This document shows positions 25,859 to 35,108 of a stretch of DNA of 64,000 bases, piece after piece. Origin of the DNA: Spirochaetia bacterium. Its GTDB lineage: Bacteria; Spirochaetota; Spirochaetia; CADAEX01. The notes beneath the pieces are model-generated. The model did not search any database and was not told the DNA's origin. It saw only the letters and a list, made by a program, of their open reading frames with translations. The stretch covers positions 96,001 through 160,000 of the forward strand of contig JAZURI010000001.1 of NCBI GenBank assembly GCA_045606105.1. The letters run 5' to 3'. A program made the translations under genes and the position numbers. Within the stretch, counting starts at the first letter, position 1. Each line of letters starts with the position of its first letter.

Positions 25859-25961
25859 AGGATAATTATATCATATCATCTAAGAGAAATAATAGTCTTG
25901 TATTAAAAGATATTTTATTATATTTTGATATAAATCAATTAATTAGAGAGGTTTACCTGTT

Positions 25962-28250
25962 ATGAAGAGAAGATTGATCACATCAGCACTTCCTTATGTA
26001 AACAATATCCCACATCTGGGAAATCTTATACAGATGCTTTCGGGCGATGTATTTGCCCGTTTCTGCCGCAGCCGCGGATACGATACGCTCTATATCTGCG
26101 GAACCGATGAATACGGAACAGCCACCGAAACCAAGGCCCTGGAGGAAAAGAAGACTCCGAGAGAACTCTGCGACTACTATTTCAAGGAACACACACAGAT
26201 CTATGACTGGTTCAAGATAACATTTGACAAGTTCGGACGCACATCCAACGAGGAATGTACCGAAATCACTCAGATGCTCTACAAGGATCTGGAGAAAAAC
26301 GGACTTATCCAGGAGCACACAAACAAGCAGCTTTTCTGCCCTCAGTGCAACATGTTCCTTTCAGACCGCTATGTAAGGGGAATCTGTCCTAAGTGCGGCG
26401 CAGACGATGCCAGAGGAGACCAGTGCGACGGATGCGGTTCCCTTCTCGACCCTACAGACCTGAAGGAGCCAAGATGCTCAACCTGCGGTGCCACACCTGA
26501 AATCAGGGAGACAAAGCACCTGTATATCAATCTCCCTGAACTCAGCGGAAAGCTGGAAAGCTGGATGGAGACAGTCAGCAAGGAAGGAAAATGGTCAGAT
26601 AATGCCATCAACATCACCAAGGCGTGGATCCGCGACGGTCTTAACGAGAGAGCCATCACCAGAGACCTGAAATGGGGAATTCCCGTTCCTCGTCCGGGCT
26701 ATGAAGACAAGGTTTTCTACGTATGGTTCAATGCTCCTATCGGATATATCTCCATTACAAAGCAGCTTGCCAACGAGCTTGCGGCCCAGGGCAAGGAAAG
26801 CTTCGACTGGAAAAGCTGGTGGATTCCCGAAGAGAGCGAAGAGGCAAAAGGCAAGGAAAAGGTTGAGCTTTTCCAGTTTATCGGCAAGGACAACATCCCT
26901 TTCCACACAGTTATTTTCCCATGTACACTTCTGGGCTCCGACCATAACTGGACCAAGCTCCATCACATGAGCTCCTCCGAATATCTCAACTACGAGGACG
27001 GCAAGTTCAGCAAATCAAGAGGTATCGGAGTTTTCGGAACAGATGCCATTTCCACAGGCATTCCGGCCGATGCATGGAGATTCTATATTTTCTACAACAG
27101 ACCTGAAAAATCAGACTTCCAGTTCACATGGAAGGATTTCCAGGAAAAGATGAACAGCGAGCTTATCGGAAATCTGGGCAACCTGGTTAACCGTACACTC
27201 CTTTTTGTAAACCGCTACTACGAGGGTAAGATTCCTCAGGCTCCTGTGGATGAAGAACTCTGGAGCGAGATCAGGAAAAAGGAAGCAAGAATCACAGAAC
27301 TTCTGGAATGGGCAGAGCTCAAGGAAGCATTTCACGAGATGTTCTCCATTTCCGACATCGCCAACAAGGCATTCCAGGCAGCAGAGCCATGGAAGACACG
27401 CAATACAGATCCTGAGCTGGCAGCAAAGCTTATCTACAACCTCAGCTATGTTATCCGCGACCTTATGATCATGATGAATCCATATCTTCCTCAGTACACT
27501 GAAAAGGTTCTTTCATATTTCGGCAAGGAAAGCTTCTCCTGGGATGAAATCGGAAAGCTCGAAGGGCTCGATACAGTGGGACCTACAGAAGTTTTCTTCA
27601 CCCCTATGGACAAGAAGACAATGGAAGCCTTCAGAGACAAGTTCTCCGGAAGCCAGAAGGAGAGAAAAGAGGAAAAGCAGCCTGAGCAGAAGAAGTCCAA
27701 GAAAAAGGAAAAGCCTCCTGTTGAGGACGAGGTTCTCCCATTTGACCAGCAGGCCCCTTTCTTTACCAAAAATATCCGCCTGAAGGTGGCAAAGATCGTA
27801 AGCGTGGAACGCAATCCTGAAAGCGACAAGCTCTACATCGAGCATCTCGATGACGGCAGCGGAGAGGACAGGGTAATCCAGAGCGGTCTGGTTCCTTATC
27901 TTACACCGGAAGAACTCATGGGCAAGCACATCATCCTGGCCGACAACCTTAAGCCTAGAAAGATGAGAGGTGTGGAAAGCCGCGGTATGCTTCTTGCTGC
28001 AGACTACAAGGATGCAGACGGCAAGGAATGTGTTGAGGTCCTCACAGCACCTTGGGCAGCACCGGGAACACAGGTTGTTCTTGAAGGCGACGACCCTGCA
28101 GGAATCAAGCCGGACAATATCGATGCAGGCCTTTTCTTCAGTATCGAGGTAAATGTTGTGAACAAGAACGTTGAAATCGGCGGAAAGAAGCTGGTGGCAG
28201 ACGGCAAGATCCTTACAACAGAAAAAACAGAAAACGGCGGAGTTCATTAA
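25962..28250 (+). CDS. metG: Methionine--tRNA ligase with C-terminal tRNA-binding domain
   Basis: ITSALPYVNNIPHLGN, zinc knuckles, KFSKS, C-terminal OB-fold (NLKPRKMRGVESRGMLLAA). Confidence 0.97.
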   Translation: MKRRLITSALPYVNNIPHLGNLIQMLSGDVFARFCRSRGYDTLYICGTDEYGTATETKALEEKKTPRELCDYYFKEHTQIYDWFKITFDKFGRTSNEECTEITQMLYKDLEKNGLIQEHTNKQLFCPQCNMFLSDRYVRGICPKCGADDARGDQCDGCGSLLDPTDLKEPRCSTCGATPEIRETKHLYINLPELSGKLESWMETVSKEGKWSDNAINITKAWIRDGLNERAITRDLKWGIPVPRPGYEDKVFYVWFNAPIGYISITKQLANELAAQGKESFDWKSWWIPEESEEAKGKEKVELFQFIGKDNIPFHTVIFPCTLLGSDHNWTKLHHMSSSEYLNYEDGKFSKSRGIGVFGTDAISTGIPADAWRFYIFYNRPEKSDFQFTWKDFQEKMNSELIGNLGNLVNRTLLFVNRYYEGKIPQAPVDEELWSEIRKKEARITELLEWAELKEAFHEMFSISDIANKAFQAAEPWKTRNTDPELAAKLIYNLSYVIRDLMIMMNPYLPQYTEKVLSYFGKESFSWDEIGKLEGLDTVGPTEVFFTPMDKKTMEAFRDKFSGSQKERKEEKQPEQKKSKKKEKPPVEDEVLPFDQQAPFFTKNIRLKVAKIVSVERNPESDKLYIEHLDDGSGEDRVIQSGLVPYLTPEELMGKHIILADNLKPRKMRGVESRGMLLAADYKDADGKECVEVLTAPWAAPGTQVVLEGDDPAGIKPDNIDAGLFFSIEVNVVNKNVEIGGKKLVADGKILTTEKTENGGVH

Positions 28251-29209
28251 TGGAAAAATCCTTCCTCCAGAGCAGCTTATGGGCCTCTTTCAAATCTGCT
28301 TTCGGCTGGAAGGGTTATACCTTTGAATTCGGCGGAGAAAAGATAAACGTACTGTTAAGGCGTTTCGGAAAGATTTTCTCTCTGGCCTATATACCCTATG
28401 CCCCTGCCGACGACAGCAGGATCGGGGAGCTTTCCCGCTACCTGAAAAAGCAGCTTCCGGCAGGGTGTATTTTTATCAGATACGATTTTCCGTGGTTTAC
28501 AGAGCAGGAAGGCTCCTGGAAAAGCAGCCCGGCCGTAAAAAAGGGCTTTTTCAAGGCATCCCTGGACATACAGCCCCCATCCTCCGTACAGCTTGACCTG
28601 ACCTTATCCGAAGCAGAGCTTCTCAAGGGAATGAAGGACAGAGCCAGACGCAACATCAGGACCGCCGAAAAACGGGGCGTCAAGGTAGAAGTCTGCGGTG
28701 TGGACAAGCTCCCTCTGTGGTACGACCTTTATAAAGAGACTGCGGAAAGGGACCGTATCTCCATTCACGGATTCAATTATTATCAGAAGCTGTTCCTGCT
28801 GGCGGCAGAGCAGAAGGATATCGAAGCAAGGCTTTATCTTGCCTCTGTTGAGGGGGATGTCATAGCCGGAATCATAACTATATTCAACGGCAGGGAAGGA
28901 ATATACCTGTACGGTGCCTCCTGCGGAAGAAAACGGGAAACCATGCCGGCGTATGCACTTCAGTGGCAGGCCATAAGAGATGCTAAGGCATCAGGCTGCA
29001 CTTCCTACGATTTTTTCGGAATACCGCCGGCCCCGGACGAAAATCATCCGATGTACGGTTTATATTGCTTCAAGACAGGATTCGGAGGGCGTATTATTCA
29101 CCGTCCGGGTTGCTGGGACTATCCTTGCAGGCCTTTACTGTACCGTATGTATCGCCTGGCAGAGGCTGCGCGCCGGTACTACTACAAGACCTTCAGAAAA
29201 AAACACTGA
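28250..29209 (+). CDS. FemAB/FemX-family peptidoglycan aminoacyltransferase
   Basis: FLQSSLW, RRNIRTAEKRGV, YLYGAS, YDFFGI, FKTGFGG motifs. Confidence 0.9.
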   Translation: MEKSFLQSSLWASFKSAFGWKGYTFEFGGEKINVLLRRFGKIFSLAYIPYAPADDSRIGELSRYLKKQLPAGCIFIRYDFPWFTEQEGSWKSSPAVKKGFFKASLDIQPPSSVQLDLTLSEAELLKGMKDRARRNIRTAEKRGVKVEVCGVDKLPLWYDLYKETAERDRISIHGFNYYQKLFLLAAEQKDIEARLYLASVEGDVIAGIITIFNGREGIYLYGASCGRKRETMPAYALQWQAIRDAKASGCTSYDFFGIPPAPDENHPMYGLYCFKTGFGGRIIHRPGCWDYPCRPLLYRMYRLAEAARRYYYKTFRKKH

Positions 29210-29220
29210 TTTCAGTTATT
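29199..29220 (+). repeat. Left copy of a 22-bp direct repeat, AAAAACACTGATTTCAGTTATT
   Basis: Identical to 33596-33617. Confidence 0.95.
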
Positions 29221-30187
29221 TGATGATGGTATATTCTTCTTTTATTTTTTTCTCAAGAGACATATATACACGATCGTGGGCTCCTTCAAGAGTCATAAAA
29301 CCAGTCTGTCCTTCAATATGATAGGTATCCGGAACTGAACCTGTTTCATTATCCTTCATTGTTATTTCCATAAAATATCTGACCATTTGATTAGGATTGC
29401 CTTGAAGCTTGAAGGGTTCAATATTTACTTCACATGAAATTTCGAATCTTGCCGGATTGTATACTGCTATGCAGCCCATTTCCTGTACTTTTTCTGACAG
29501 GGCTTTCTTGAGTCTGCCGTGTCTGTCTCCCGGATTTCCGGTTACCGAAACAAAAACAGGTGCTTCCTGCATAAGGAGGGAAAGTTCCTTCTCTATTTCC
29601 TCAGGAGAAAAAACCATATCCTTGGCCAGTTCTGCCGTATTAAAACTAAGGACTGAAAGGATTGTTATATAATCATTCTGTTTCCCGGCCAGTTCTGCAC
29701 CCTTTTTATAATTGTAACAGTTAATAAGAGGATTTTCATCTTTTCTGAGAAGAGCTGAAATATCCCTGAAAAGCTGTTCAGTTTTCCTGTAATAGATTCC
29801 CGCGGTTTTTTCCTTGTCAAGAACGGCCAAAGCGTAGCACTTGCCGTCAGAAGAAGTCCATGCCTGTTTTATTTCTGCACCGGAAAGAAATTCCATATTG
29901 GTGCTGAGTGAAACGTTATGATTTATGCTTGTTTTATGTTCTCCTGAATCTGCCATGTACCTGGAGGCCTCTGTACGGGAATCTACGCTCTGACCAAAAA
30001 CAGAAGCAAGTGCCTTTATGGCATCTGCTTCCGCTGTTTTCCTGTCTCTGCCGATTCCGGTTGCTGTAAGATATCTTTCATCATACAGTCCGGATGGATT
30101 ATTAATCCATTCCGGAGGTACCTCTCCGAATGCAGTTGAGCATCCAAACCATAAAATAAGAATCAGAGAAGAGAGGTATTTTTTCAT
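29216..30187 (-). CDS. LPP20-family lipoprotein
   Basis: MKKY...FGC signal; PEWI...YLTATGIG...AEADAIKALASVF LPP20-like signature. Confidence 0.75.
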   Translation of the reverse strand: MKKYLSSLILILWFGCSTAFGEVPPEWINNPSGLYDERYLTATGIGRDRKTAEADAIKALASVFGQSVDSRTEASRYMADSGEHKTSINHNVSLSTNMEFLSGAEIKQAWTSSDGKCYALAVLDKEKTAGIYYRKTEQLFRDISALLRKDENPLINCYNYKKGAELAGKQNDYITILSVLSFNTAELAKDMVFSPEEIEKELSLLMQEAPVFVSVTGNPGDRHGRLKKALSEKVQEMGCIAVYNPARFEISCEVNIEPFKLQGNPNQMVRYFMEITMKDNETGSVPDTYHIEGQTGFMTLEGAHDRVYMSLEKKIKEEYTIIK

Positions 30188-30189
30188 GC

Positions 30190-31770
30190 TTATTCCTGGC
30201 ACTGTACTGTCAGAAGGTTAAGCTTTCCTGCTTCTATCTTAACAGATTTTGTTACAGGTTTAATTGATGTACCTGGGAAGCTGATAGTTACATTATATGG
30301 TCCGGGTGCGATTTCCAATGCTCCTGCATGTACTTCCGCAGGGAAGAAGTGAGTTCCTCTGATATCAGCCTTGTCATTTTCATCGATTTTTTTGAGTGTT
30401 GTATCAAGAACCTTTCCGGCTGCCATTGATGCTCCGGCTTTGGCAATCGCATTCATGTCTTTTGCTTTATACATTGCCCCTACGTAAGTAGCTGCTGCCG
30501 CGATATACCTTGTTGTGCTTCTGAATTTGCTTCTCTTTTTATCAAATTCAATATTTTTTTCCATACATGCGCTTGAGATGTCGTTTACATTTTCGATAAG
30601 GTCAAGTGTAACTACCTTGTCCCCGATCTTGATTTCGCATGTTTTTGCTTTATAGTCGCGTGGTTCAAGAACTGTGTAGTCATACTGCATGTTTCTTTTT
30701 GAAAGACCACCTGTAAGAATGCTTGTAATTTCACCCGATGCAACAGCAAGCTGCTTGACTGCAGGAACTGATGAGAGTCCTTCTACTATTGCATTGATCG
30801 GTGTAGTCATTTCTTCTGAAACTCCCTTTTTTTCAGCCATAAGTCCCATAAGAGCCACTACATTGAGGCGAGCCATTCCATTAGGAACATCTTTTGTTTC
30901 TTCTTTTACGGCATCAAGAGTTGCTGCATATTTGGTTTCACCTTTGTAACTTTCCTGTTCATATGCTTCTTTCATTTTTTTGTAGAAATAGTCTCTGTTT
31001 TCTCCCTCTCTGTGATCATTGTATTTGTTGTAGATGAGTGCAAGGTAGTTTGCCAATGCTGAATTGCTGAAAACAACTCCTGCTGCTTCTGGAGCTTTAC
31101 TGTCGCTTGGGGAGGCTTCGTCAATTTTTTCTAAAAGTTTATTTTTGTACTCATCCATTTTACGAAGCATGTGTCTGATATTCTTGAGATCCACGAATGC
31201 ATCATCTGCGGTTTCAGAGTTATCCATTTTGGCAAGGGCATTAAAAATTACCGCATACATATCCTCATAGTCGTATGTTACATAATCTGTGGAATAAGGA
31301 TCAAGAAGCAGTGTTGAAAGTTCAACCTTGTCTGCATTGTTATATTTTTCTTGAAGCTTATGCATATCAGCAGCAACATCGTTGAAATGATTGACAGCTT
31401 CAGCCTTGTTTCCGGCATACAGCTTGATCATACCTGCATCTATGTTGTAGATGTCATCAGAACCGAGAGAATTTCTGTTTGTTTCTTCGGAAAGAAGGCT
31501 ATAAGCTTCTTCGTAGTTTCCGGCATTCATTGCCTCATTTATAGCTGCCAGGTAATCACCTGATTTTGCCTTCTTTGATTTGGCAGTTTTTTTCTTATTT
31601 TTTTCCTTTGCTTTTTCTCCCTTTTTCTGTTCCTTTTCACTCTTCTTGTCCGCTTTTACGGTTTTTTCATTTTTTACTGTATCATTCTGTACAGCACCCT
31701 TTGTTGTTCCGCATGATGCAAGAAATGTTGCACATAACAGAATCAGAAGTCCTCTTTTGATAAACTTCAT
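30190..31770 (-). CDS. COG3014-like TPR lipoprotein
   Basis: LASC lipobox, Lys-rich tether, DAGM, Y...YEDMY..IFNAL and ADIR..HFFP motifs. Confidence 0.7.
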   Translation of the reverse strand: MKFIKRGLLILLCATFLASCGTTKGAVQNDTVKNEKTVKADKKSEKEQKKGEKAKEKNKKKTAKSKKAKSGDYLAAINEAMNAGNYEEAYSLLSEETNRNSLGSDDIYNIDAGMIKLYAGNKAEAVNHFNDVAADMHKLQEKYNNADKVELSTLLLDPYSTDYVTYDYEDMYAVIFNALAKMDNSETADDAFVDLKNIRHMLRKMDEYKNKLLEKIDEASPSDSKAPEAAGVVFSNSALANYLALIYNKYNDHREGENRDYFYKKMKEAYEQESYKGETKYAATLDAVKEETKDVPNGMARLNVVALMGLMAEKKGVSEEMTTPINAIVEGLSSVPAVKQLAVASGEITSILTGGLSKRNMQYDYTVLEPRDYKAKTCEIKIGDKVVTLDLIENVNDISSACMEKNIEFDKKRSKFRSTTRYIAAAATYVGAMYKAKDMNAIAKAGASMAAGKVLDTTLKKIDENDKADIRGTHFFPAEVHAGALEIAPGPYNVTISFPGTSIKPVTKSVKIEAGKLNLLTVQCQE

Positions 31771-31773
31771 TTT

Positions 31774-32403
31774 TTAATCTCCTCTATTTTTTGATTTTTT
31801 GATTTTTTTCTTTACTTTCTTTTCAGAACCGATAACTTTCTTGATGTCCTTGTTTTCACCTTTCCAGATAAGTTCTCCGGTTTCAATGTCCACCATTTCA
31901 GCAAATACAAAATAGGTCTTGACAGCAATATTGATATCTGTATCCACAATAGTTTTTACAGAGCCGGTGAGGATAAGGTCGGGAATAAGCTCGTTTGCTG
32001 CTTCCTTCTGTTTTGTAGGATCAGACCATGAAGCCCGGGCAAATCTTTCTTCCCTTATCTCCTCTATTCTTTTTTTTGAAGCAATGAATCTTGCCTTCCC
32101 TGAATTAAAAATTCCTGTTTCTATTCCCTCTGTAATAATTGAAGTATCAATGTATTCGTCGCTGTCATTTCTGAACTTACCGACTGTAACAATCGGCCGT
32201 CGTCCCAGATCCTCTTTATAGCCTGAAAAACTGCCGGAATTAAGAGCCTGTTCGATAAGCCCTTCACCCACAATCCTTGCGTCCGAATCATTCCAGTAAC
32301 CGCTTGCATCCACCTGAAGATCTGCATCAACTCTTTCCACGGTTTTTGCATAACAGGGCATGATCAGAACTGAGATGAAAAATATGAAAGCCAGTTTTTT
32401 CAT
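31774..32403 (-). CDS. LpoB/YcfM-family protein
   Basis: VERVD...D.SGYWNDSD, RNDSDEYIDT, MVDIETGELIW...IKK motifs. Confidence 0.8.
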   Translation of the reverse strand: MKKLAFIFFISVLIMPCYAKTVERVDADLQVDASGYWNDSDARIVGEGLIEQALNSGSFSGYKEDLGRRPIVTVGKFRNDSDEYIDTSIITEGIETGIFNSGKARFIASKKRIEEIREERFARASWSDPTKQKEAANELIPDLILTGSVKTIVDTDINIAVKTYFVFAEMVDIETGELIWKGENKDIKKVIGSEKKVKKKIKKSKNRGD

Positions 32404-33095
32404 TCTCTGGTTACCTTTCCATCCTTCATAAGCTCTGCCACAAGGGTATCTGCCATGTTTTCGGCCTGCTGTCTGTCACCTGATTCAAATTCGTTTACTA
32501 TCTCATCGATAAGGCTGTTGATCTGTTTCTTGTAAAGTTCCTTGTTGATGGAATAGATCTGGATTACATGATATTCGTCTGTTACCTTGTCGGACTTGTT
32601 GTCAATAGTTCTCAGAAGAGTCCAATAGTCAGCCACTTTACGGAAGCCTGAAAATTCTGCCTTTGAAGCAACAGCTGTAATTGTCTTCTGGGTTTTTTCT
32701 CTATCTGAAAGAACTCCGCTGAACTTATTCATGGCAGCGGTGTGGAATGTGGCTGCAACTCCTGCATTGAAATCTGCATTTTCCATCCAACTCTGAACCA
32801 GATCCAGATCCGGACCGTTATCCTGAACCTTGATTATGATATCTTCATGGCAGTCAAATTTTTCCTTGAATGAATCATAATTATCTTCAAGTACATCCAT
32901 CAGCCACGCCGGCTGATCAAGTCCGAAAGCTTTGTTTTTATGATTGATTACAATAACCTTAGGAACATCCGGTCCGTCTGTGTTCCCAATATCTGTACCT
33001 TGTTGATTTCCGGTTGCTGCCGCACCTGTAGTAGCTCCGCATCCTGTCATGAAAAGAATAACAAGACAAAGAGCTGAGATGATAGCTTTTTTCAT
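32400..33095 (-). CDS. Hypothetical lipoprotein
   Basis: SD GGGAG; MKKAII...MTGC lipobox; FSGFRKVADYW segment. Confidence 0.75.
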   Translation of the reverse strand: MKKAIISALCLVILFMTGCGATTGAAATGNQQGTDIGNTDGPDVPKVIVINHKNKAFGLDQPAWLMDVLEDNYDSFKEKFDCHEDIIIKVQDNGPDLDLVQSWMENADFNAGVAATFHTAAMNKFSGVLSDREKTQKTITAVASKAEFSGFRKVADYWTLLRTIDNKSDKVTDEYHVIQIYSINKELYKKQINSLIDEIVNEFESGDRQQAENMADTLVAELMKDGKVTRE

Positions 33096-33111
33096 TTTTC
33101 TCTCCCTTTGA

Positions 33112-33189
33112 TACGCTAAATGAAGTATGGGCTTAAATAATACCACCTGATAAGCGTGTTGTCAACATAAAAGTACTTATTTTGAAGTA
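33112..33189. promoter_or_regulatory. Divergent promoter region with two TAC-N10-GTA boxes
   Basis: TACgctaaaTGAAGTA at 33112-33127 and TACttatttTGAAGTA at 33174-33189; TTGACA on the minus strand between them. Confidence 0.5.
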
Positions 33190-33201
33190 TATTTAATTAT
33201 A

Positions 33202-33606
33202 ATGGAAATCAATTTTCGAAAGAACCTAAGAAAAATTCTTGATGACAGGGATATTTCTGTTAAGGAATTGGCATCAATGACAGGAATCTCAAAAAGAACC
33301 CTTGAAAATTACCTTGGGAGCAGAGAATCCATTCCCCCTGTTGATTATGGCTACAGAATAGCAAAGGTTTTGGATGTTACGGTTGAATATCTCCTGACCG
33401 GAACAGATAAAAATACAATGAGGGAGGAATCCGCCAAAGCTGTCGCCTTTAAAAATCTTTTTAAAAAATTTAATTCTTCGGAAAGTATGAATAATCTGTC
33501 AGAAGAGGACATGAAGGCAGTGAGTGATATTGTCAATATCATAATAAATGTCAAAAATACCACCAACCATGTCAGTGTGGATAATGTCGAGATAGAAAAA
33601 CACTGA
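33202..33606 (+). CDS. XRE-family HTH repressor
   Basis: ISVKELASMTGISKRTLENYL...IAKVLDVTVEYLLTG; divergent from the lipoprotein operon. Confidence 0.9.
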   Translation: MEINFRKNLRKILDDRDISVKELASMTGISKRTLENYLGSRESIPPVDYGYRIAKVLDVTVEYLLTGTDKNTMREESAKAVAFKNLFKKFNSSESMNNLSEEDMKAVSDIVNIIINVKNTTNHVSVDNVEIEKH

Positions 33607-33617
33607 TTTCAGTTATT
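33596..33617 (+). repeat. Right copy of the 22-bp direct repeat
   Basis: Identical to 29199-29220. Confidence 0.95.
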
Positions 33618-35108
33618 GTCGGGAATCCATTTTCCCCCGGATAATTTCATTCCGTACTGTGTTTCAAGATTCCATGCCAGCCCTTTCTGTGTGGCTCTTA
33701 CCGCACGGGTAAAGTCGGTATCTTCGTGCTTGGCAAGATAAGTTTCGCAACATTCAAGCCCCGATGCAAGAATATTGTCCATCAGAAGCTTGGAGGCAAT
33801 GAATCTCTCTTCCTTGTGAACGGCAAATATTATCATTGATTCCAGCAGACCTATGATTTCCCATGTAATCTGCTCGGTCTGGGAATACATTCCTATATCC
33901 TTGTGCTGGTCTATGAGGCGCACCGGCAGGGAATCAATTATCCTGTCCAGATTCTCCACCAGATATTCCAGATTAAAAAGTCCTGTGGCGCAGTTGAAAA
34001 GAATAGGCATTCCGGAAGCCTCGTGGGAGGCTACGAATTCCTTGGAAATAGCCCTTCCGATATCGCCGCAGTTAAGCCTTCCGTTTTTCTCCCTTACCAG
34101 GATTCCCCCCTTTACATCCACCGGAGTCTTAAAAGAGAAATCAAAGCTGGCATTTCTTTCCGAAAGAGCCAGGATTGCCACTTCTGCCGGAGAAACTGTA
34201 AAACCGATGTTATCCACATTTCCCAGATAGACAAACTTTTTTCCCTCAGCCAGAAGCTTTCTGTATGTATCCCTGAGCACCATGAAATTCTGCCCGTGTC
34301 CTCCCGGAAGGGAATAGAAACTTCCGTCCTCCTTTCTGAAAAAGTCCAGAGGAAAGCCCTTGGATGTATGGGTAAATGCCGGAATAAGCGGCTGAACCGC
34401 TCCGAGCACCTCGGTTATATCCACGCCGGTTTCTTCTGAAAGATCCCTGATGCCGGGAAGCTCCCTGTAGGTTCTGTATTTATTGCGGAGAATGGTATCC
34501 GTGCTGTTGCTGGTCATCTGGAAAACGGAATTTCGGTATGCATCCGGTCCCTTGCCTGTTACAGCCATGGATTTCTTTATGGTAAGAAGAATGGATCTGA
34601 GCTTGAGGGCCATGAAATCGTAGCCCGGTGTACCGTCCGGGTTTATGTATGCCGGAGTTGCCCCTTTAGGAATGTTTCTTGCAGTATCCGCAAGAGCCTC
34701 AAACTGTTTTTCCGCCTCTGCAAAAAGCTCCGGATTGAAGGCTGAATTGTTTTTTCTGTCGCAGTAGCTGGTGGCCATGCCGCCGTTGAGTACACCGTAG
34801 GAAAGGAACGGAATAAGATGAAGTCCTATCTTTTCCGCAGTCTCGAATCCTATATCCAGAGTATCTCCCTCTTTGCGTGCATCTGTCAGCAACTCTGTCG
34901 GAATTCCGTATTTTTTCAGGATTTCCTGCGCTTTAGTCCCGTTTATGTAATAATGAAGATTCTTGTGAAGTACAAAAATATCCTTGCCGTCGGGATGAGG
35001 CAGTGTATCTACATCAAGATGACTGATTCCCTCCGGTCGTGATGCGTTTACTGAGTCGAGAATTTTCTGACCAAGGTTCAGATCTGTTTCCATGCTTTTA
35101 ATATACAA
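33609..35108 (-). CDS. UTP--glucose-1-phosphate uridylyltransferase, UDPGP (eukaryote-type) family
   Basis: LNGGMATSY, PGGHG, GNVDNIG, KGGIL motifs. Confidence 0.8.
   Translation of the reverse strand: MYIKSMETDLNLGQKILDSVNASRPEGISHLDVDTLPHPDGKDIFVLHKNLHYYINGTKAQEILKKYGIPTELLTDARKEGDTLDIGFETAEKIGLHLIPFLSYGVLNGGMATSYCDRKNNSAFNPELFAEAEKQFEALADTARNIPKGATPAYINPDGTPGYDFMALKLRSILLTIKKSMAVTGKGPDAYRNSVFQMTSNSTDTILRNKYRTYRELPGIRDLSEETGVDITEVLGAVQPLIPAFTHTSKGFPLDFFRKEDGSFYSLPGGHGQNFMVLRDTYRKLLAEGKKFVYLGNVDNIGFTVSPAEVAILALSERNASFDFSFKTPVDVKGGILVREKNGRLNCGDIGRAISKEFVASHEASGMPILFNCATGLFNLEYLVENLDRIIDSLPVRLIDQHKDIGMYSQTEQITWEIIGLLESMIIFAVHKEERFIASKLLMDNILASGLECCETYLAKHEDTDFTRAVRATQKGLAWNLETQYGMKLSGGKWIPDNN

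Follow-up and report, generated by a model that had tools for sequence, protein, structure and literature searches.

The 64-kb stretch of spirochaete DNA analyzed here (hereafter the window) belongs to a small gut spirochaete with a 1.46-Mb genome (assembly G000; 1,464,972 bases in 11 contigs, 99% complete). Our subject is a 4397-bp block on contig C1, near 125 kb, which lies between the convergent core genes femAB and UDPGP and is bounded by a perfect 22-bp direct repeat, AAAAACACTGATTTCAGTTATT, whose copies are spaced 4397 bp apart. The repeat is exactly 22 bp long, with mismatches bounding both ends. When up to three mismatches were allowed, these two matches were the only ones in the window (0 of 100 shuffled sequences reached two), and no further copy is found in the whole genome. 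Four stop codons fall within the two copies. The left copy contains the TGA of femAB (29207-29209, plus strand) and the TTA of the LPP20-domain lipoprotein gene (29216-29218, minus strand), and the right copy contains the TGA of the XRE regulator gene (33604-33606, plus strand) and the TCA of UDPGP (33609-33611, minus strand). Therefore, the two minus-strand genes use different triplets of the repeat. The C-termini encoded up to the plus-strand stops are FRKKH (FemAB) and EIEKH (XRE). An inner palindrome, ACTGA-TT-TCAGT, with 5-bp arms and a 2-bp spacer is also present, but 6 of its 10 paired bases belong to the two convergent TGA stops, and thus it says little in favor of a recombinase site. 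A first-pass annotation of the window had pointed out the exact repeat with its four stops, the common KH ending of FemAB and XRE, and the inverted repeat; all of these agree with the open reading frame (ORF) table and the sequence, and its suggestion to look for additional copies in the genome yielded none.

The block is compositionally distinct from its surroundings, as revealed by the GC and codon profiles that the same annotation had proposed as a check: GC content is 0.395 in the block versus 0.49 and 0.48 in the flanks, and GC at third codon positions (GC3) is 0.33-0.40 versus 0.50-0.58. It consists of an accessory operon with four lipoprotein genes and of an XRE regulator gene, and it is located in a hotspot between the two core genes (Table 1). 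All four operon proteins start with lipoprotein-type signal sequences, and they probably represent surface lipoproteins. The LPP20 gene likely starts at the ATG at 30187 (MKKYLSS..., lipobox WFGC), and its stop coincides in position with that of its orthologues. For the 248-aa ORF, the likely true start (MKKAIIS...) is near 33098, and no family match was obtained in Pfam or NCBIfam. In Atlas, the 526-aa protein falls among clusters of spirochaete lipoproteins and of the 'COG3014 family', which serves as a lead only. The C-terminus of the XRE protein is variable, and its last ~15 residues extend past the ends of the orthologues in two related genomes (G003 and G008) and into the repeat. None of the five enclosed ORFs matched a recombinase family in Pfam or NCBIfam, as the first-pass annotation had claimed.

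Table 1. Features of the block, its flanks and the other repeat-bounded islets of the genome. Positions refer to the window unless a contig is named.
Feature	Position	Strand	Remarks
femAB, left flanking core gene, FemAB family	28250..29209	+	Pfam; KH-stop end native
LPP20-domain lipoprotein	29216..30202	-	Pfam PF02169, E 5e-9
526-aa lipoprotein	30190..31770	-	no Pfam or NCBIfam family
LpoB-like lipoprotein	31774..32403	-	PF13036, E 1e-22; TIGR02722, 70 bits, below cut-off
248-aa ORF, lipoprotein without known family	32400..33146	-	lipobox MTGC
XRE-type HTH regulator	33202..33606	+	PF12844, PF13443, PF01381; divergent from operon
UDPGP-family protein, right flanking core gene	33609..35108	-	Pfam
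Left 22-bp copy	29199..29220		native femAB/UDPGP-type junction sequence; femAB and LPP20 stops inside
Right 22-bp copy	33596..33617		XRE and UDPGP stops inside
Recombination tract metG-femAB-junction-UDPGP	25900..35100		~4.8 kb without block; 96-100% identical to G005, empty allele there
Islet with 60-bp repeat	C11:113361/114784		spacing 1.4 kb; sulfotransferase-like gene; GC inside 0.27
Lipoprotein islet with 22-bp repeat	C1		spacing 4.4 kb; lipoprotein operon and XRE; GC inside 0.395
Islet with 20-bp repeat	C3:117916/125172		spacing 7.3 kb; AAA_14 ATPase and Type III mod/res; GC 0.34-0.37 for mod/res

To find the site in other genomes, 41 related genomes were searched with the segment 27500-35500 of the window. 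Contig C189 of one of them (G005) carries an empty site, in which the two flank pieces overlap by exactly the 22-mer, so that femAB, a single copy of AAAAACACTGATTTCAGTTATT and UDPGP follow one another. The left flank is 99% identical to that of the source genome and the flanks overall are 97-100% identical, and both genes are intact, with amino-acid identities of 98.7% (FemAB) and 98.8% (UDPGP). The protein ends in KKKH in another relative (G007) too, and therefore this end of femAB is native. Because a single 22-mer joins femAB and UDPGP in the empty allele, it is the native junction between the two gene tails, and the repeat therefore represents a target duplication in the source genome. 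The empty junction that the first-pass annotation had proposed to look for in relatives thus exists, and its deduction that removal of one 4397-bp unit would rejoin both genes intact describes a real allele.

We also aligned Logan contigs of public gut and faeces metagenomes to the segment 27000-36500. In one sample (X1), a single contig of 5473 bases spans both junctions (28591-34081) with 124 differences across the block and 18 gaps, versus 5-14 within-species differences per 0.6-1.3 kb in the flanks. In another (X10), separate contigs span each junction. Since these independent contigs span both junctions, the repeat is not an assembly or chimera artefact, which the first-pass annotation had named as grounds for abandoning its view. 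In a third sample (X3), one contig ends at 29220 and then reads GTCGGGAA, the bases that follow the right copy (i.e., an empty junction), and another contig begins exactly at 33596. The 30-base overlap in X3 corresponds to a branch of the k=31 graph, and therefore both the occupied and the empty junctions are present in this sample. In X3, read depth is 2.7-5.8 over the block versus about 7-10 over either flank. Past UDPGP, the DNA in this sample (depth 8.3) is similar to that of the source genome, with 7 differences in 1353 bases, and thus the empty allele occurs there in the same type of background. The block is a precise and scarless presence/absence polymorphism within the species, and the empty junction in G005 together with both alleles in X3 upholds its earlier description as a scarless block between convergent genes. 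Raw reads came from one run (X21; 2 reads matching the locus), the other runs with this organism being represented by contigs only. A joint from 36392 to 33440 in X1 was discarded as spurious; it comes from a contig of 191 bases that matches imperfectly over 32 bases.

Identity between G005 and the source genome is 71-86% around the locus; G005 is a different species, represented by a metagenome-assembled genome (MAG) of about 240 contigs that is 74% complete. The near-identical tract listed in Table 1 has sharp edges, at the start of metG on one side and the start of UDPGP on the other. Sharing of this tract by two species would most simply be read as the product of recent homologous recombination. 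The source genome encodes ComEC and DprA, and DNA uptake appears plausible from these two genes alone.

The femAB/UDPGP site is a hotspot with alternative cargo. The genus set comprised nine genomes, which pairwise identities divide into clade A (the source genome and G005), clade B (G002, G003, G004, G006, G007 and G008) and G001, which stands apart. Five of the nine (G005, G006, G007, G002 and G004) have an empty site with tight junctions, and three (the source genome, G003 and G008) have the block in the same order and orientation. The remaining genome, G001, carries SlyX, PC4-like, small lipoprotein and ABM genes at this place, its contigs C26 and C32 overlapping by 55 bp and linking both sides of the site. 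The blocks of G003 and G008 at the same site have no flanking repeat. An extra 0.6-1.4 kb with a conserved 75-81-aa ORF lies between XRE and UDPGP in these two genomes, and in G003 this stretch also includes a HicA-like ORF (26.8 bits, just below the cut-off). Block proteins of the source genome and clade B are 46-49% identical whereas their flanks are 61-67% identical, and therefore the block has long been present in the genus and was not acquired recently from clade B. Within clade B, the corresponding values are 69-91% for the block and 80-90% for the flanks.

Orthologues of the 526-aa protein were detected in four of the nine genomes (the source genome, G003, G007 and G008). G007 has the block in another place (G007:C92, locus L017), with a recQ-like gene on one side and a paralogous LpoB/526-like operon on the other; in the source genome, the equivalent position (C7:104486-104592) is empty. 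Six metagenome contigs with the block (L038-L043) were also found. Three of them (L039, L040 and L042) show the femAB context, two of which also reach UDPGP, and L038 shows the recQ context on a single contig. L041 and L043 have a second XRE-like gene next to the block, and in L041, whose contig covers both sides, the block stands between AAA_14/DUF4143 genes. No recombinase was found in the available stretches of any of these six contigs, and neither they nor the orthologous blocks of G003 and G008 are surrounded by flanking repeats of 14 bp or more. A 13-mer common to G003 and L040, which occurs in the femAB end and in the HicA-like ORF and encodes KFRK in both, was treated as a chance match. 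In both G007 and L038 the block stands directly upstream of the paralogue operon, which may be the position where it arose by duplication.

We then examined whether the genome offers a recombinase or further sites. Only two tyrosine recombinases (PF00589) were found: a 296-aa protein encoded between ftsZ and dprA, a XerD-like context, and a 306-aa protein encoded between topA and hslV, a XerC-like context. Judged by gene context, they are the predicted housekeeping XerC/XerD pair. Thus, the tyrosine recombinases that the first-pass annotation had suggested searching for do exist, but both occupy Xer contexts and no orphan enzyme was found beside them. No serine recombinase, rve or DDE_Tnp_1 transposase was detected in the genome (no match to PF00239, PF00665 or PF01609). 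A genome scan with a motif that we take to represent dif gave five candidates, of which the best and sole good one is at C9:34817; the 22-mer resembles none of the five. GC skew along contig C1 tracks gene orientation, with no switch at the block. The core ACTGA-N(1-4)-TCAGT occurs nowhere in the genome beyond the two repeat copies. Among 401 genomes of the class, the exact 22-mer was found only in the source genome (2 copies) and G005 (1 copy), and three single matches with two mismatches (G057, G211 and G215) are at about chance level. No exact match was found in JGI metagenome contigs, nor any match in phage and plasmid collections.

Exact direct repeats of at least 18 bp within 40 kb were also scanned in the source genome, with the CRISPR array and pairs of paralogues set aside. 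This resulted in three low-GC blocks bounded by perfect repeats (Table 1), and the repeats of 60, 22 and 20 bp are unrelated in sequence. No recombinase was found in the 60-bp and 20-bp islets. The C11 islet (C11:113361-114843) holds a single gene and adjoins an MFS/nucleoside symporter gene. The C3 islet (C3:117916-125191), bounded by the perfect 20-bp repeat GGTTTTTACAATAGGGTGGG, lies between an AzlC gene and a DUF6548 gene and contains an AAA_14 ATPase, a Type III restriction-modification (RM) methylase, a res subunit and a 164-aa ORF. This Type III RM block was found in none of the eight other genus genomes, nor was an empty site identified, the only close contig (G005:C113) beginning just 134 bp ahead of the right repeat. 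A 22-bp repeat at C10:62038/63330 is not an islet and represents the starts of two tandem paralogues.

We regard it as somewhat probable that the block was inserted with duplication of its target, that homologous recombination in the flanking core genes has since exchanged the alleles, and that precise loss is possible across the repeat. Host recombination and repair, acting on incoming DNA, would have placed the block in the junction without a dedicated recombinase, either in one insertion with target duplication or through a homology-anchored illegitimate join of occupied and empty alleles. The joints would lie at the A-run and at TTATT, and an illegitimate join would also account for the lost clade-B spacer and the altered end of XRE. 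The two alleles may subsequently spread and replace each other through recombination in the flanking genes after DNA uptake, and recombination or slippage between the 22-bp copies could remove the block precisely. Every junction state keeps the reading frames closed because femAB and UDPGP end back to back. This explanation draws on the empty site of G005, the native end of femAB, the two alleles of X3, the tract of 96-100% identity, the presence of ComEC and DprA and of the Xer pair only, the two other islets with unrelated repeats, the variable site, and the occurrence of the block in other contexts without a recombinase. The pattern fits both 'insertion with long target duplication' and 'minimal mobile elements', as these are set out in the accessible parts of PMC2853133 and PMC3082526, respectively. 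Several points weigh against it. The insertion step itself was not observed, and the mechanism of target duplication is not established, being left open in the accessible literature as well (PMC2853133). The 22-bp length is below the >30 bp by which Furuta et al. excluded att-type repeats, according to the accessible part of that article (PMC2853133), so that, judged by length, the repeat could have a site-specific origin. The mosaic of G005 comes from a 74%-complete MAG and could represent two chimeric contigs, the evidence from X3 consists, at the level of Logan contigs, of one 8-letter loose end and depths, and competence is deduced from genes only. Moreover, the same site and orientation are used in clade A (the source genome) and clade B (G003 and G008), which repeated targeting explains equally well.

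The first-pass annotation had favored a site-specific cassette mobilized in trans. Such a scenario, resembling a cis-mobilizable element (CIME), casts the 22-mer as an att core; the block would leave the chromosome as a circle and enter it again by means of a trans-acting recombinase, either XerC/XerD or a serine/tyrosine recombinase of a helper element absent from the assembly. The perfect repeat with its exact single-copy empty site, the length of 22 bp (within the att-core range), the central TT of the inner inverted repeat, the presence of XerC and XerD, and the fact that a circle would keep XRE and LPP20 intact are all consistent with this, and two deep clades share the block at this site while it is also found in two further contexts, as if moving as a unit, with both alleles coexisting in X3. 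Nevertheless, we consider it unlikely and find the annotation's view unsupported, as the 99%-complete genome has only the Xer pair and the 22-mer, which was found at no other place, is unlike the dif-like candidate at C9:34817 (under the motif assumed above) and coincides with no skew switch. Its palindromic core is confined to the two copies in the genome, the 22-mer itself occurs in no examined genome of the class or metagenome contig beyond the source genome and G005, and no phage or plasmid similarity was found. In addition, the orthologous blocks at the same site in relatives lack flanking repeats of at least 14 bp, and two other islets of the same genome are bounded by unrelated repeats. 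No circle junction appeared among the listed Logan joints and loose ends, although contigs cannot show rare forms. A stronger form of this idea, in which the 22-mer is a live recombination site (5-bp arms, central TT) and the operon with its regulator excises and re-integrates reversibly via a host or helper recombinase, seems quite improbable to us. If it were true, the islet would be a scarless on/off switch for surface lipoproteins, and the four junction states would keep genes intact by design.

A different account holds that the block is ancestral at the site and that the empty alleles are deletions between pre-existing repeats, no insertion having ever occurred in the lineage of the source genome; the repeat would then have been left behind by an older rearrangement at this locus, in which the clade-B spacer and the small ORF were lost. 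The age of the block speaks for it, as the identities of 46-49% versus 61-67% are roughly in step with a block that evolves faster within clade B, and so do the shared position and orientation in G003 and G008. The left junction, with the femAB stop followed by the LPP20 stop at its native position, resembles the clade-B junction, and block diversity within the species (the X1 figures above) is at least that of the flanks. However, the femAB end is duplicated perfectly over 22 bp at the end of XRE, which has a chance expectation of 0 and still needs a target-copying event, in effect the illegitimate join already included in the explanation we favor; we therefore judge the ancestral account distinctly unlikely. 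As for an assembly or binning artefact, in which the block was stitched in through a short shared word or G005 looks empty because its assembly collapsed there, both genomes are indeed metagenome-type assemblies, and that of G005 is fragmented and incomplete. Yet contigs from other, independent studies span both junctions, synteny agrees in G003 and G008, and the empty junction occurs in both G005 and X3. This possibility is largely refuted, and we give it almost no credence.

Insertion with target duplication and allele exchange by homologous recombination, the explanation we favor, can be compared with known systems. Insertions with long target duplication were reportedly described by Nobusato et al. 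in 2000. According to the accessible part of Furuta, Abe and Kobayashi (2010), insertions with long target duplication are recognized as an indel relative to a related genome, without mobility genes, with an insert of <20 kb and a duplication of >30 bp; they occur mostly in naturally competent species, and their mechanism was left open (PMC2853133). The block resembles the cases described there in its size below 20 kb, its atypical GC content and its lack of a mobility gene, in the single repeat copy that constitutes the uninterrupted target in a related genome, in the uniqueness of the repeat in the genome, in the overlap of the repeat with the 3' ends of neighboring genes, and in the presence of ComEC/DprA (PMC2853133). 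Thus, it is an indel with a single-copy repeat in G005 and, at 4397 bp, shows no integrase or transposase among its five ORFs and their neighbors in Pfam and NCBIfam, but its 22-bp repeat falls below the >30 bp threshold (PMC2853133). The cargo also differs from what the accessible text describes, being a lipoprotein operon plus regulator and not an RM system, yet the 20-bp-repeat islet of the same genome carries a Type III RM system.

For Neisseria, minimal mobile elements were reportedly described by Saunders and Snyder in 2002 and by Snyder et al. in 2007. Elements of this kind consist, in the accessible part of one account, of two conserved genes with differing cassettes between them that are incorporated by homologous recombination (PMC3082526). 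The femAB/UDPGP site agrees with this outline in its conserved flanking genes and in its alternative states, and the 4.8-kb tract is compatible with homologous recombination in the flanks, although it might also stem from chimeric MAG contigs. In contrast, minimal mobile elements are not defined there by a duplicated target, and the host here is an uncultured gut spirochaete with competence deduced from genes only. A CIME still carries the attL and attR sites of a family of integrative and conjugative elements (ICE) or integrative and mobilizable elements (IME) and is moved by the integrase of that family, as stated in the accessible part of PMC6323972. In line with this description, the block lacks integration and transfer genes and is bounded by directly repeated att-like sites; unlike a CIME as described there, it has no ICE/IME family that we could find, no integrase in the genome other than XerC/XerD, no further site copy in the genome, the 401 genomes (G005 aside) or the metagenome contigs, and no similarity to entries of the phage and plasmid collections. 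Elements integrated by XerC/XerD at dif (IMEXs), such as the CTX phage, likewise have no recombinase of their own, and the host XerC/XerD are the sole tyrosine recombinases here. The XRE protein matches the RstR repressor family weakly (36.8 bits versus a cut-off of 80). We rejected membership in this group, as the 22-mer with its 5-bp arms and 2-bp spacer is not dif-like under the motif that we assumed and no GC-skew switch is present.

The islet therefore looks like a clean case of known, mechanistically unsolved recombinase-free gene gain and loss and not a new mobile element. The case is unusually clean in that the target, its duplication, the empty allele, a sample with two alleles and an inter-species tract are all visible at one locus. 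With almost no mobile-element genes and at least two more repeat-bounded islets, this genome is a compact natural system for studying the origin of 20-60 bp target duplications. The presence/absence polymorphism of probable surface lipoproteins may reflect host or phage pressure.

Some additional observations concern the block genes and their neighborhood. In the 526-aa gene (window positions 30900-31400), the strains of X1, X3 and X10 differ from the source genome by 60-69 substitutions per ~1.1-1.2 kb, and the same region shows several in-frame indels of 3 to 12 bases; its divergence is far above that of the flanks. This variation fits a surface protein under diversifying selection. A pattern search of genome contigs with this protein gave 111 pattern matches, none of which was confirmed, the patterns coming from its lysine-rich stretch. 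The source genome also has a conserved two-gene paralogue of the operon (C7:104593-106574), comprising an LpoB-like gene and a gene for a 461-aa lipoprotein (C7:105189-106574) that is 26% identical to the 526-aa protein.

In the G004 assembly, two metG-femAB versions are present (L021 on G004:C17 and L020 on G004:C118), with metG identities of 83% and 86% to the source genome and one version at a contig end; they probably reflect a mixture of strains or species in the MAG. The 75-81-aa ORF in the extra stretch of G003 and G008 is cysteine-rich and overlaps the end of UDPGP. Small ORFs between XRE and UDPGP are preceded by a hairpin, GGGACTGAGAAATCAG(T/C)CCC, with a T-run and a Shine-Dalgarno-like GGAGGG behind it, twice in G003 (G003:C54, locus L016, 7900-8200) and once in G008 (G008:C24, locus L015). 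The hairpin looks like a repeated terminator or leader module, and its ACTGA...TCAGT core is reminiscent of the 22-mer, perhaps by chance.

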